DNA of 59,259 bases from assembly GCA_023244815.1 (NCBI GenBank), contig JAHFLQ010000004.1:1-59259 (forward strand), written 5' to 3'. Under the pieces are notes generated by a model that was not told the origin of the DNA, made no database searches, and saw only the letters and a list, made by a program, of their open reading frames with translations. Shown here piece by piece: positions 19,242 through 25,251 of this stretch. The position numbers and the translations under genes are program-made. This DNA comes from a bacterium (GTDB lineage: Bacteria > Patescibacteriota > Minisyncoccia > UBA6257 > WO2-44-18). Every line of letters begins with the position of its first letter. Within the stretch, counting starts at the first letter, position 1.

Positions 19242-20621
19242 ATGCGGACTCTTATTGCGGATATAGTAAAACACGAGGGCAAAGAGGTGGAGCTGATGGG
19301 ATGGGTGGATGTCCGGCGGGATCACGGGAAGATTATTTTTATTGATTTGCGGGACCGGAGCGGGATTGCCCAGATTGTTTTTGCCGGAAAAGAAATGTAC
19401 GCGGCGTGCGACAAGCTGCGGCCCGAGTGGGTAGTGAAAATTTCCGGTAAGGTCGCCAAGCGCCCGGCGAGCATGGTAAATCCTAATTTACCCACCGGCG
19501 AATATGAAGTCCAGGCGACTGCGTTGGAAGTTTTTACCGAAGCGCAAACGCCGCCGATCGATGTTACCAGCGATGGCCGCGAAATTGGCGAGGAAAACCG
19601 GATGAAGTATCGCTATCTGGATTTGCGGCGCGCCCGTATGCAGAAGAATCTTCGCGCCCGTTCCAAAACGCTGGCATTTGTGGACGAGTATTTTAAAAAG
19701 CACGATTTCGTTGAGGTGGAGACGCCGATTCTCGGCAAGTCCACGCCGGAAGGAGCGCGTGATTATCTCGTGCCGTCACGATTGTATCCGGGAAAATTCT
19801 ACGCGTTGCCGCAGGCGCCCCAGCAGTATAAACAACTGCTTATGGTGGCCGGTCTGGAGCGTTATTTCCAGATCGCCCGCTGTTTCCGTGATGAAGACAC
19901 GCGCGGTGATCGCCAGCCGGAATTTACCCAGATTGATTTTGAAATGAGTTTTGTGGAACGCGAAGACGTGATGAATTATCTTGAGAGCTTTATCGTGGAG
20001 CTGGTAAAAAATGTTTATCCCGAAAAGCACATTACTGCCGTGCCGTTCCCGCGTTTAAACCACGCGGAGGCGATGAAGAAATATAAGAGCGACAAACCGG
20101 ATCTACGCAAAGACAAAAATGATGCAAACGAACTCTCCCTCACCTGGATCGTGGATTTTCCATTTTATGAATACGACGAGAATACAAAGGCATGGGATTT
20201 TGGCCACAACCCATTCAGTATGCCGGAGGGCGGAAATTTACCCGACAGTGAGGAAGATTTGAGCGGTGTCAAGGCAATGCAATACGACCTCATTCTTAAT
20301 GGTTTTGAGATCGCCGGCGGCAGTATCCGTAACCACAAGCCGGAATTATTAAAGAAAGCCTTCGAACTTTTAGGCTATAAGAACAATGTTATTATGGATA
20401 AGTTCGGCCATATGATTGAGGCGTTTTCCTACGGTGTGCCGCCGCACGGAGGCGCGGCGGTCGGCTTTGACCGCCTGATGATGCTTTTGCTCAACGAGCC
20501 GAACATCCGCGAAGTAATTGCGTTTACGAAAACCGGCGACGGACGAGACTTGATGAGCAACGCGCCGTCGGAAGTTGATGAGAAGCAGCTGAAAGAATTA
20601 CATATCAAGATCAGTAAATAA
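19242..20621 (+). CDS. aspS: aspartate--tRNA ligase (short form, without GAD insertion domain)
   Basis: RRDHGKIIFIDLRDRSG, PEGARDYLVPSR, ALPQAPQQYKQLLM, RQPEFTQID, PPHGG; 459 aa. Confidence 0.96.
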   Translation: MRTLIADIVKHEGKEVELMGWVDVRRDHGKIIFIDLRDRSGIAQIVFAGKEMYAACDKLRPEWVVKISGKVAKRPASMVNPNLPTGEYEVQATALEVFTEAQTPPIDVTSDGREIGEENRMKYRYLDLRRARMQKNLRARSKTLAFVDEYFKKHDFVEVETPILGKSTPEGARDYLVPSRLYPGKFYALPQAPQQYKQLLMVAGLERYFQIARCFRDEDTRGDRQPEFTQIDFEMSFVEREDVMNYLESFIVELVKNVYPEKHITAVPFPRLNHAEAMKKYKSDKPDLRKDKNDANELSLTWIVDFPFYEYDENTKAWDFGHNPFSMPEGGNLPDSEEDLSGVKAMQYDLILNGFEIAGGSIRNHKPELLKKAFELLGYKNNVIMDKFGHMIEAFSYGVPPHGGAAVGFDRLMMLLLNEPNIREVIAFTKTGDGRDLMSNAPSEVDEKQLKELHIKISK

Positions 20622-22473: not shown

Positions 22474-22501
22474 AAAAAAAGCGGCTTCACGCCGCTTTTT
22501 T
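22474..22501. terminator. bidirectional intrinsic terminator
   Basis: A7-GCGGC-ttcac-GCCGC-T6. Confidence 0.85.
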
Positions 22502-22502
22502 A

Positions 22503-22904
22503 GTCTCGCGTAAGATCCTCGGAAAGAATGTATCCGCCAGCCCCTGTACTTCACATATCCCACCAGAATTTGATAGCGGAAAAATGAGACGAGTTCGCGA
22601 AGCTGAGGCGTAAGTGTAGATTCTACTCTACGCCGAAAGCGACAATGAAATCGGCCATTTTTCCGCTACCCCGAAGGGGCGGGTAAATTTTGGCCAGCTC
22701 CTTTGTTGCGCTCGCCGGCAATAGAGTCTATTGCTCGGCTCGCGCGTCGCGGATCTGTCTAAAAATTTTCTCCGTCAAACTGCTGCGATATGTGAAGTAC
22801 ATGGGGACAGCATAGTGGGCGGGTTCATCGTTCCGACCAAAGCCGGAAGAGCTATTACCTTGCCCTGAATAAAGTATTTGATCCGGAATCTTAACAGCGG
22901 GACT
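22503..22904 (-). ncRNA. candidate long-hairpin ncRNA (6S-like?) with palindromic inserts in its apical region
   Basis: Extended -10 TGcTATACT (22911-22919, minus strand) just upstream; 5'/3' ends pair; 15-bp perfect stem 22545-59/22787-801; ends at a terminator; no credible ORF. Confidence 0.5.
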
Positions 22905-22938
22905 AATTTCAGTATAGCACAAAAGTTCAAAACTTAGC

Positions 22939-25251
22939 CTATGGCTTCAGTTTTAGCAAGATTCGTTTTATCAGTGCTTCAGCGGCGCCTTCGTGGCCGC
23001 GGACAATCATCAACGACGTATTGACGTCTTTAGCGAGAACCTCCGCCACGCTGCCTAATTTAAAGTGAGAAAGAAATTTCGGACGGGCGGAGCCGATAAT
23101 AATCAGATCATGATTTTTCTTCCGCGCCTCTTCCAAAATACTGCCGGCTATCGAGCGTCCAGAAACAAGATTGATTTCATCAAAATCCTTTTTCTTCAGT
23201 CCCATAGCATTCAGCATCACACTCGGGTCAGGCTTGAGGTAAGTCGGGATTTCCTGCCTGATTACGCTGAAGAGCTCCATCGTTGGTTTGAAGTAGTCGC
23301 GAAGGCCGCCGGCAATTTCTCCGATCAGTTCCAAATAAGGCCCCCGCGCTGATGGATGAGCAGAAACCAGAACGGATTTAAAGGGCTTGGCATCTTGCAC
23401 AACCAAGAGACCGCACTTGGATTCCCGCAGAATGCGATCAATTTTACTAGATAAAATAACGCCCTGAGTCTGGGTGTAGCCATACCAATTGAGAATCAGG
23501 AGGTCGCAGTCCTCTTGCTTAACCACGTCCAAAATTACATCCACCACATCGCGTCCGATGAGAATAAAACTGTGGAAATTAATATCTTTTATTTCAGGGC
23601 CAGTTCTTTGATTGTACTCGGCAACCAGCAAAGTAAGCTGATCGAAGAATTTCTTTTCTTCCTCCAATACCTCGGGTTTTATCGTCGATTGATTGAGTGG
23701 AAGTGCCGGCGGAATTTCATGGATGCGCACAATAACCAATTCGCCATCGAATTTACTGGTTAAGGCGAAAGCAGTTTCGCTCAAGTTTTTTATTTCTTCC
23801 CAAGAAAGATTTGGAGCAAGGGGCAAAAGAATCCGCTTGCCGGTTTTCGGGCCGATTCGGGCGGCTTGCTCATAAACGATGCCGGTTTCAAAAATTTCGC
23901 GGCTCTGGGTTTGGGCGTAAGCAAAATAGTTTACAAATCCGAGCAAGACCCAGAAGGCGGCGATTACCCAAGCGGTCAGATTAACCTGAATCAACGTGAA
24001 TCCCAAAACTACATAAACAGCAATAGCAATCAGCGGCAAGACCGGAAAAAGGGGGATTTTGTAATACCACGGCGTGTCCGGCCACTTGTAGTGAATATTA
24101 ATGCCGGCGATGTTCAACTGAAGAAAGAGCAGAATAAAGAGCAGGCTGGCAAGACTGGCGACATCGAAAAGCGGCAAGAAAGCCACCATCGCGACGATAA
24201 GCAGGATGGAAGCGATAACAGCTAAGTGCGGCGTCAGATTACGAAGGTGAATTGAGGAAAGCCGCGACCAGACGTTCTTGTCCCTCGCCAGGGCGTAGGA
24301 AACCCGGCTTGAAGAGTAGATGGTAGCGTTTAGGGCGGCGAGGTTAGCGAGCAACCCGCCGACTACCATGATGAAATGCCCGAACGGCATAAAGCTTTGA
24401 GCGGCCCTGGTGACGGCGCCCTCGCCCCAACCAGCCACAACCTGCCAAATCGGCCCTCCATCGCGAGTGGCCGCCATAATAATCAATGAAGTCAAAAGAT
24501 AGATTGCGCTGACTATGCCCCACGAGGCAATCAACCCAACCTTGATAGTTCGTTTAGGATCTCTTGTTTCCTCACCTGCCTGTACCTGAATCTCCGAACC
24601 TTCAAAGGCGATGTAAAAAAAACTAGCCGCGGCCAAGACCCCCAAAATTCCTGACGGCAGAAGCGGAGTGAAGTTGCCGAGTGATTGCGCCGGTTCGGTA
24701 AAAACTTTAAAAGCTCCGAACACAATAAACAAACCGAGGATTACTAAAAGGAATACGGCGATGACGTTGCCGGCTTGCCCGCTGGTTTTCGCCCCTTTCC
24801 ATTGAAAGTATCCAAAAACGAGAACTACCAAAGCGCCCACTATTTTTTCTATGGAAAAAAGCTCCAGGCCAAAATCATTGCCGGTCACTATTTTTACGAG
24901 TTCATAGGCATAGAACCCAAAGCTAAGCGCGTACAATCCAGCGGCTGCCGAGTGGGCAAACCAACTCATCCAGCCGGCCAGAAACCCCTGGAATTTCCCG
25001 AGTCCCTTACTTACCCAGAGGTATCCGCCGCCAGCCTCCGGGAAAGTCGTGCCGAGAGCGATATACATCTGAAGATTTAAGAAAGCGACGCCGGCTCCTA
25101 ACAGCATGGCGAGAAATAGTCCGGGACCAGCCAAGCCGGCGGCCGGTCCCAGTAAGGTAAAAATGCCGCCGCCGAGTAAAGCGCCGACACCTAGCAAAAT
25201 AATTGACCCTAACCCAAGAGTTCTGGCCAGTTTTACTTCTCCTTGTTCCAT
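22939..25251 (-). CDS. APC-family amino acid permease fused to universal stress protein (USP) domains
   Basis: LARTLGLGSIILLGVG, TFPEAGGGY, AFEGSE...EET, 12 TM; C-terminal CDLLILNW and DLIIIGSA...LGSVAEVLAK. Confidence 0.9.
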   Translation of the reverse strand: MEQGEVKLARTLGLGSIILLGVGALLGGGIFTLLGPAAGLAGPGLFLAMLLGAGVAFLNLQMYIALGTTFPEAGGGYLWVSKGLGKFQGFLAGWMSWFAHSAAAGLYALSFGFYAYELVKIVTGNDFGLELFSIEKIVGALVVLVFGYFQWKGAKTSGQAGNVIAVFLLVILGLFIVFGAFKVFTEPAQSLGNFTPLLPSGILGVLAAASFFYIAFEGSEIQVQAGEETRDPKRTIKVGLIASWGIVSAIYLLTSLIIMAATRDGGPIWQVVAGWGEGAVTRAAQSFMPFGHFIMVVGGLLANLAALNATIYSSSRVSYALARDKNVWSRLSSIHLRNLTPHLAVIASILLIVAMVAFLPLFDVASLASLLFILLFLQLNIAGINIHYKWPDTPWYYKIPLFPVLPLIAIAVYVVLGFTLIQVNLTAWVIAAFWVLLGFVNYFAYAQTQSREIFETGIVYEQAARIGPKTGKRILLPLAPNLSWEEIKNLSETAFALTSKFDGELVIVRIHEIPPALPLNQSTIKPEVLEEEKKFFDQLTLLVAEYNQRTGPEIKDINFHSFILIGRDVVDVILDVVKQEDCDLLILNWYGYTQTQGVILSSKIDRILRESKCGLLVVQDAKPFKSVLVSAHPSARGPYLELIGEIAGGLRDYFKPTMELFSVIRQEIPTYLKPDPSVMLNAMGLKKKDFDEINLVSGRSIAGSILEEARKKNHDLIIIGSARPKFLSHFKLGSVAEVLAKDVNTSLMIVRGHEGAAEALIKRILLKLKP

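Follow-up and report, generated by a model that had tools for sequence, protein, structure and literature searches.

The minus strand of a 59,259-nucleotide stretch of DNA from a groundwater Patescibacteria MAG (the window) very probably carries a stand-alone small RNA (sRNA) gene, with a -10 box at 22919-22911, a start near 22904 and a terminator at 22501-22475. By the same joint and confident judgement, its ~126-nt core is a member of a conserved, covariation-supported Parcubacteria (Patescibacteria) family of ~45 loci that is absent from Rfam 15, and the fold of the family is a rod made up of a P1-P2 closing arm, a large internal loop and a P3-P4 apical arm. In the window, this core is interrupted by a long palindromic domain, which probably represents a sporadic, horizontally exchanged insertion at a tolerant loop and lies outside the ancestral RNA. 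The combined account, which joins the conserved sRNA and the palindromic insertion to a 6S-like mechanism, is one that we hold with slightly less confidence than doubt.

Few non-coding RNAs have been described for the Candidate Phyla Radiation (CPR), and universal CPR RNAs are often missed by standard models; a literature search for a 6S RNA or sRNA of CPR/Patescibacteria returned nothing relevant. The family offers a concrete new entry for annotation, a covariation-supported, promoter-driven Parcubacteria sRNA that is missing from Rfam.

The sRNA gene and its family

The sRNA element lies 20-35 nt past the stop codon of a gene for an amino-acid permease of 770 aa with fused Usp domains (APC-USP; 22939-25251, minus strand). 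Converging on it from the other side, on the plus strand, are a small unannotated ORF, an AAA_33 kinase-like gene, ndk and aspS. The DNA runs that match the window come from a groundwater metagenome. An earlier note on this DNA had proposed a candidate ncRNA, read on the minus strand and ending at a terminator; the present analysis agrees in finding a real, independently transcribed-looking gene there, and the TGcTATACT promoter (22919-22911), outer stem, inverted repeats, palindromes and terminator that it listed are all located where it had placed them. The parts of the gene are as follows.

22911-22919, minus strand: extended -10 promoter TGcTATACT (TGCTATACT), from the sequence and the family promoter pattern
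~22904, minus strand: predicted transcription start A, 7 nt downstream of the -10 box
22897-22903, minus strand: P1 5' strand GUCCCGC, core closing helix, from the MFE fold and family helix 1
22883-22890, minus strand: P2 5' strand GAUUCCGG, from the MFE fold and family helix 2
22866-22882, minus strand: internal loop 5' strand AUCAAAUACUUUAUUCA, 17 nt, A/U-rich, predicted unpaired, from the MFE fold and homologues
22817-22865, minus strand: P3-P4 apical hairpin, which is the actual tip of the sRNA, from the MFE fold and family helices 3 and 4
22838-22841, minus strand: apex loop UUUG, from the MFE fold
22536-22811, minus strand: inserted nested-palindrome domain, ~276 nt (at most 283), within the 3' loop strand, from insert-free homologues
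22523-22535, minus strand: rest of the internal loop 3' strand GGAUACAUUCUUU, from the fold; 10-12 nt in total in homologues
22514-22522, minus strand: P2 3' strand CCGAGGAUC with a bulged A, from the fold; family consensus CCGG(G)RAUC with a bulged purine
22503-22509, minus strand: P1 3' strand GCGAGAC, one C.A mismatch with the 5' strand, from the fold
22475-22501, no strand assigned: symmetric intrinsic terminator (A-tract/stem/T-tract), from its stem-loop

The outer stem is formed by GUCCCGC..UAAGAU (22903-22889) pairing with AUCUUA.GCGAGAC (22517-22503). Being symmetric, the terminator can serve both the minus-strand sRNA and the convergent small ORF on the plus strand. The minus-strand fold of a 456-nt stretch has an energy of -186.6 kcal/mol versus -131 +/- 5.6 for shuffled sequences (z = -9.8), and the plus-strand fold of the same stretch has a z of -8.6; the folding signal of the region exceeds chance. 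The MFE fold of the window contains 7 G-U pairs on the minus strand versus 9 on the plus strand, so a choice of strand from these counts alone is uninformative, and the caveat of the earlier note that the strand was not settled was fair for the window taken by itself. The homologues, judged from their sequences, do settle the strand as minus, with frequent G-U pairs on the modelled strand, which corresponds to the minus strand of the window.

Orthologous APC-USP loci were taken from GTDB genomes. In three of them (L002, L004, L008), a ~120-nt sequence directly downstream of the permease matches the window element in its two outer parts but has nothing of the sequence between them. The outer parts are hence conserved in relatives, and the insert-free orthologues for which the earlier note had suggested looking next to the APC-USP gene are present. 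A pattern scan of metagenomes, with a pattern derived from these orthologues, gave 46 matches, of which ~44 are genuine. MAFFT alignments (A1-A3) put P1 and P2 out of register, and because of this RNAalifold missed both helices on A1. A covariance model (R1) was built from 5 cleanly aligned members (seed A4) and found 54 copies, 43 of them distinct, with 0 matches in 695 kb from other phyla. The window copy scores 30 bits with R1, a low value that reflects a 3' half not alignable across the insert, and no other copy was seen by R1 in the 59-kb window. Diverged second copies occur in tandem in L097 and L106. Two scans of viral contigs gave chance matches only, without any sRNA.

Members of the family are 111-140 nt in length, mostly 117-130 nt. 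P1 has 7-15 bp, typically RUCCCGY/RCGGGAY, and is followed by a small internal loop, while P2 consists of GAUUCCGG/CCGG(G)RAUC with a bulged purine. The large internal loop is asymmetric, with a 5' strand of 15-19 nt (35 homologues) that is A/U-rich (AUCAAAU...) and a 3' strand of 10-12 nt that often reads CUGGN..G. The apical arm of ~17 bp starts with P3 (GGGA../..ACCC with an A.A mismatch), continues through a tandem-GA loop and ends in P4, which is capped by a variable YNYG tetraloop (CGUG, CUUG, UGCG) next to a stem that covaries freely. The loop sequences AUCAAAU and CCCACCUGG are kept beyond the needs of pairing.

Two known motifs were compared with this anatomy and rejected. The loop between P3 and P4 is not a K-turn, as the GA pairs abut P3 without a 3-nt bulge. 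SRP RNA carries a GNAR apical tetraloop and conserved domain-IV loops; the sRNA has variable YNYG apical loops and no Rfam match to SRP (4.5S) RNA.

Across the full set, 94.8% of the cells pair and 24/33 pairs show double changes, with a covariation score of 0.553 versus 0.187 for shuffled alignments (0/500 reach 0.553), and slid controls give at most 57% pairing. Since the pattern scan had fixed part of P2 and P3, the count was repeated on homologues found through synteny alone. In these 10 homologues, identified by protein synteny, 92.3% of the cells pair and double changes occur in 23/33 pairs (0/500 shuffles). Double changes affect 9/9 pairs of helix 1 in the full set and 7/9 in the synteny set, and for helices 3 and 4 the counts are 5/7 and 9/9 in the full set and 5/7 and 8/9 in the synteny set. 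P2 likewise has compensatory variants in synteny-found homologues, e.g., CCAG/CUGG in L129.

A -10 box (at least 5/6 positions of TATAAT) ends 6-8 nt before P1 in 39/42 family copies, 23 of those 39 having the TG extension, and the TGcTATACT of the window, with the start that the earlier note had put near 22904, fits this pattern. P1 is followed by a U-tract, often directly, or by a separate terminator. Most commonly, the order is aspS-ndk-sRNA on a single strand (ndk cluster at 22 loci, aspS cluster at 24), often with an ndk-sRNA gap of 50-90 nt; 10 loci have metG after the sRNA, and 3 have an ECF-type sigma factor there. In the clade of the window, the sRNA comes after the permease and converges on ndk. 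Its orientation with respect to the permease flips among relatives (in L001, L003, L005 and L009, the R1 copy and the permease gene are on different strands), and the downstream neighbours vary. Occurrence in either orientation relative to its neighbours indicates that the sRNA is its own transcription unit, and the flips argue against a role as a leader or 3'-UTR.

No RNA run matches the window sequence or the L081 copy. Two RNA runs gave one small low-depth contig each (178 and 151 nt) for a relative of L113; both contigs extend from the 3' end of the permease into the sRNA, over its first ~75 nt, with no discrete 5' end. These contigs are compatible with transcription and read-through, short of proof for a discrete sRNA.

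The inserted domain

The 5' 93 nt of the window sRNA (22904-22812) comprise the 5' strands of P1 and P2, the 5' loop strand and all of P3-P4, and the last 33 nt (22535-22503) comprise the end of the 3' loop strand and the 3' strands of P2 and P1. As these two pieces hold the whole core, the 276-nt insert (22536-22811) projects from the 3' loop strand, which in the predicted fold makes a three-way junction of the rod. The insert measures 283 nt if it is bounded by TA..TA flanks (CCCACTA/TG...GGA/TA/CATT, with slashes at the boundaries), and cutting it out at these boundaries would give a loop strand of the canonical 10 nt, UACAUUCUUU. The TA..TA flank is a 2-nt repeat and weak as a target-site duplication.

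This arrangement differs from the earlier proposal of a ~180-nt, two-armed, 6S-sized rod carrying a ~230-nt insert at its apex. The 118-nt "right arm" of that proposal already holds the complete apical hairpin (22817-22865), the conserved core amounts to only ~126 nt (117-130 in homologues), and the insert is ~276-283 nt long (22536-22811), with the 15-bp "upper stem" forming the base of the insert instead of a part of the sRNA. The insertion site is thus a side loop and not the tip.

The insert forms a nested palindrome that is close to perfect. A 26-nt repeat (22541-22566/22780-22805) is 88% complementary and includes the 15 perfect bp, and further in there are a perfect 13-bp repeat (22574-86/22656-68), a CCCC-GAA-GGGG palindrome (22669-79) and the palindrome GCAATAGA/TCTATTGC (22719-36). 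A second occurrence of the long-repeat motif in the 59-kb window was not found, 0 being expected. The following elements are predicted for the RNA.

22545-59/22787-801, minus strand: base helix of the insert, 15 perfect bp, predicted
22574-86/22656-68, minus strand: 13-bp helix, predicted
22669-79, minus strand: C(UUCG)G hairpin on the RNA strand, predicted
22719-36, minus strand: hairpin, predicted

In the predicted fold, the two ends of the insert form one helix of ~33 bp. The 106 predicted pairs of the insert include only 4 G-U pairs, and one strand folds as well as the other (z = -9.9 and -8.9). No Rfam family, ribozymes and group I introns included, matches the insert at E<=10. Group I introns have a P3-P9 core, and their ends are not paired with each other; the pairing of the insert ends and the lack of an Intron_gpI match at E<=10 led to rejection of this candidate.

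The four closest relatives found (APC-USP 79-81% identical to that of the window) have an insert-free sRNA of 118-121 nt; loci without the insert include L127-L131 (to which the 79-81% applies), L002, L004 and L008. In most members the 3' loop strand is 10-12 nt, but it reaches ~60 nt in L101/L103, and that of the window measures ~293 nt. Contigs in the source metagenomes cross the insert at uniform single-copy depth, and diverged pieces of the insert are found on other low-depth contigs from the same samples. One of these sequences, a 251-nt contig (X1), has an sRNA core that is 31/32 identical to that of L005 and an insert starting CTGTACTTCACATATC, which is 87% identical to the window insert over 60 nt; the adjacent core is ~55% identical to that of the window (compared by eye, on a 30-nt loose-end consensus). 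L005 itself has this type of core without an insert, whereas X1 has both core and insert. In L101/L103, which belong to another lineage, a 50-nt perfect hairpin occupies the same site and has the same termini as the window insert (CUGUACUUC...GAAGUACAG). The termini CTGTACTTC/GAAGTACAG are common to the window insert, L101/L103 and X1, and in 1.18 Mb of loci the paired CTGTACTTC...GAAGTACAG motif occurs only at the sRNA loop site. Another contig (X2) perhaps has a short hairpin at the loop, as seen in a 30-nt loose-end consensus only.

Absence from the closest relatives, common termini and 87% identity across different cores together point to a lineage-sporadic insertion, and the pattern in X1/L005 and L101/L103 means that presence of the insert does not track the phylogeny of the host RNA. 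Vertical inheritance of the insert with many losses is a possible alternative origin. A second copy of the insert was found neither in the 59-kb window nor by blastn of all loci nor by the paired-termini search of 1.18 Mb, and a search for a transposase or a clear target-site duplication was equally negative; these results speak against a classical MITE.

By analogy, the insert resembles an rRNA intervening sequence (IVS) or a MITE. Like rRNA IVSs and expansion segments, and like the large helix extensions reported for CPR RNase P RNAs (PMC8172020), it is a long, end-paired stem-loop that replaces a small loop. As with these elements, its site is fixed and its occurrence sporadic among relatives, the lengths here being 50 and ~280 nt. 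In contrast to them, its host is a ~120-nt sRNA, so that the interrupted RNA has less than half the length of the insert.

Bacterial palindromic repeats and MITEs such as the Correia, ERIC and REP-type elements share with the insert terminal inverted repeats, the lack of an ORF, a possible TA..TA flank, empty sites and a co-transcribed hairpin. The insert differs from them in the single copy detected (59-kb window, uniform single-copy depth, 1.18 Mb of loci), its many nested palindromes and its recurrence at one RNA loop across lineages. The earlier note had named as refuting its proposal the case that the arms are simply the ends of a MITE with empty sites; such a description is true of the inner element but not of the outer arms.

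Because of the insert, the window RNA is more than three times as long. Small regulatory RNAs, in addition to rRNA and RNase P RNA, can thus host large sporadic palindromic insertions at a fixed loop, and the insert is relevant to the spread of such elements and to their tolerance by RNAs.

Possible function of the core and competing readings

The suggestion of a 6S-like sRNA made in the earlier note is still the best functional guess for the core, although it comes without an Rfam 6S match. The models concerned are RF00013 (6S) and RF01685 (6S-Flavo). No 6S match was obtained for the window at the gathering threshold or for the region at E<=10, for insert-free orthologues at four orthologous loci at E<=1, or for 293 kb of Parcubacteria loci. 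A 201-nt insert-free copy (L008 1300-1500) matches no Rfam family at all at E<=10, so that the check proposed earlier, running both 6S models on the sequence freed of its insert, was negative on insert-free orthologues even at this threshold. Overall, the Rfam scans identified tRNAs and one 16S rRNA only. Failure of the 6S models and the short length are the reasons why we do not file the sRNA under 6S.

Compared with 6S RNA (SsrS of E. coli, 6S-1 and 6S-2 of B. subtilis), the sRNA likewise has a stand-alone gene with a strong housekeeping-type promoter, and closing and apical arms with small loops around a large central bubble, which is predicted here. Two paralogues in some genomes are a further likeness. 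It differs in length (117-130 nt versus ~160-200 nt), in an apical arm too short for a "-35-like" region and in the lack of a score from any Rfam 6S model even at E<=10. Truncated 78-82-nt 6S-1 RNAs without the -35-like arm still bind, template pRNA and are released in vitro (PMC8876501), which makes a natural mini-6S of ~120 nt mechanistically feasible. In these RNAs (6S78, 6S82cp; PMC8876501), the bubble and its two nearest helices suffice in vitro; they are engineered and have ~10-fold lower affinity, whereas the Parcubacteria sRNA is a natural conserved gene.

The 3' strand of the bubble-proximal helix has an alternative partner in 6S RNA. When freed in E. coli it forms a hairpin with the 3' bubble (3'-CB), and its partner in B. 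subtilis is the distal 5' bubble (CBCH) (PMC8876501). A similar partner is seen here as computed complementarity: in 23/35 members the P2 3' strand is complementary to the 3' loop strand or to the distal 5' loop (z < -1.5 versus shuffled sequences). Two measures were used, and members without one alternative pairing often have the other, while 12/35 fail both.

A mechanism can be proposed along these lines. The core rod with its open bubble would mimic an open promoter and sequester the housekeeping RNA polymerase. With the conserved 5' strand AGAUUCCGGAUCAAAU as template, the enzyme would make a short product RNA (a candidate is 5'-AUUUGAUCCGGAAUCU), which would unzip P2. The freed P2 3' strand could then find a new partner, either the complementary 3' loop strand (CUGGC..GCCGG) or UGAUU in the distal 5' loop, so that the enzyme is released. 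In the window, the insert would project from the non-template-like strand and might be tolerated there or trimmed by RNase III. By analogy with 6S RNA, we tentatively favor such a role of the core as a mini 6S-like decoy of RNA polymerase. If it is a true 6S analogue, it would represent the smallest natural 6S architecture and a handle on transcription control in unculturable organisms. The wider claim that the family is the long-missed 6S of Parcubacteria/CPR, ~120 nt in size and without a -35-like arm, and that its loop is the landing site of a site-specific, horizontally spreading element, is speculative and rather unlikely.

As the chief rival reading, the core may be a conserved sRNA that is not a 6S analogue, such as the RNA of another ribonucleoprotein, a protein sponge or a trans-acting antisense RNA, which we consider possible with limited confidence. 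The structural evidence is the same for this reading as for the 6S-like one, and the lack of a 6S model match, a length one third shorter than 6S and the conservation of the AUCAAAU and CCCACCUGG loops beyond pairing needs are in line with it. Candidate protein-binding sites would be the internal loop, the tandem-GA loop and GGA-containing junctions (CCGGAUCA, AGGGA), and an antisense RNA would use the A/U-rich loop strand. However, no partner protein is consistently encoded nearby, the neighbors being varying housekeeping genes, and such an RNA does not predict the rod-plus-bubble shape or the alternative pairing of the P2 3' strand.

With the 6S-like decoy still the preferred function for the family, it may be asked whether the window copy itself works. 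It could be a pseudogene broken by the palindromic element, any 400-nt transcript then being non-functional, as might be suspected from the absence of the insert in all four closest relatives, the C.A mismatch in P1, the unusual bulged A in P2 and the R1 score of only 30 bits. This is improbable given that neither the promoter nor the terminator nor any of the four core helices is disrupted, that the insertion site also bears extra hairpins elsewhere (50 nt in L101/L103, perhaps in X2), that a homologous insert persists in a second lineage and that no second sRNA copy which might compensate was seen in the 59-kb window.

Far less probable is a cis-regulatory role of the element, be it as a leader of metG (such as a T-box or riboswitch) or as part of the 3'-UTR or terminator of ndk or APC-USP. 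Its location behind ndk in most loci, at a distance of 50-90 nt, and ahead of metG in 10 loci, the RNA-run contigs linking the APC-USP 3' end with the sRNA and the U-tract often directly after P1 would agree with such a role, but the copies have their own -10 box (39/42), they are convergent with or opposite to their neighbors in many loci, the window included, Rfam has no T-box or riboswitch match for them, and the AUG "specifier" is missing from the loop in three loci with metG downstream.

Hardly credible is a DNA-level MITE or palindromic repeat without functional RNA over the whole 400-nt region, since the equally good fold on both strands, the nearly G-U-free palindromes and the empty sites that would support it concern a reading which the conserved core makes tenable for the inner 276 nt only, the outer 126 nt having strand-specific G-U pairs and compensatory changes across ~45 loci as well as a promoter.

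As a side observation, the neighbors of the sRNA weakly echo the synteny of 6S genes. A reference title in PMC10578484 places 6S-1 of B. subtilis in the aspS-yrvM spacer, and in lactic acid bacteria the 6S gene adjoins uspA (PMC8414754); here, aspS and the Usp-domain permease are neighbors of the sRNA.

Spacer and neighboring genes in related loci

The spacer between the permease gene (APC-USP, an amino-acid permease fused to Usp domains) and the sRNA measures 20–55 nt in the window and in the related Parcubacteria loci L002, L004, and L008, versus 333 nt in the close relative L131 (5195-5526), where the sRNA is insert-free and the spacer contains a called 77-aa ORF with no Pfam hit. In L001, L003, L127, and L129, the permease gene and the sRNA are separated by an inserted RNase_T/DnaQ-like exonuclease gene; the sRNA is on the strand opposite to the permease in L001, L003, and L129 and on the permease strand in L127. 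Downstream of the sRNA, three loci (L083, L094, and L111) carry an ECF-type sigma-70 family gene at a distance of 70–170 nt and on the same strand.

Features in related loci
L001, 4340-4990: RNase_T/DnaQ-like exonuclease gene
L083, 2855-3433, same strand as sRNA: ECF-type sigma-70 family gene (Sigma70_r2 + r4)
L097, 1249-1388, plus: diverged second sRNA copy
L106, 1195-1320, minus: diverged second sRNA copy
L082, 7533-10626, minus: 16S rRNA gene

The second copies in L097 and L106 (37–39 bits) lie in tandem with the main copy, ~100–190 nt downstream of it, and retain P1 and P2 while the middle part differs, an arrangement reminiscent of the paired 6S-1/6S-2 genes of Bacillus. A few kilobases from the sRNA on the L082 contig is a 16S rRNA gene, which spans 3,094 nt versus a model of 1,533 positions and thus carries ~1.5 kb of insertions.

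Possible insert modules and the terminator in the window

Features of the window copy and its surroundings
22708-22749: sub-hairpin of the insert, GCGCGAGCCGAGCAAUAGACUCUAUUGCCGGCGAGCGC on the RNA strand
22475-22501, usable in both orientations: symmetric terminator, AAAAAAGCGGC-loop-GCCGCTTTTTT
22126/22287-22470/75, plus: small ORF converging on the sRNA

A 311-nt contig from the groundwater metagenome X2 matches only the sub-hairpin inside the insert, its flanks being unrelated, and some portions of the insert may thus represent small palindromic modules in their own right. Because the terminator is symmetric, it can end both the minus-strand sRNA and the small ORF that converges on it, for which Pfam gave no match.

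Protein-coding neighbors in the window

Genes discussed
19242-20621: AspRS gene, product 459 aa
20644-21231: NDK gene, product 195 aa
From 25106, plus: lepA ORF
To 25251, minus: APC-USP permease ORF

AspRS is short and aligns to the bacterial model of 590 positions as two separate segments, so that it apparently lacks the usual insertion domain. For NDK, too, the match to the model (~140 positions) is split in two, suggestive of an insertion within the protein. The lepA and permease ORFs as listed overlap head-to-head by 146 nt (25106-25251), and the start codon of one or the other has probably been placed too far upstream.
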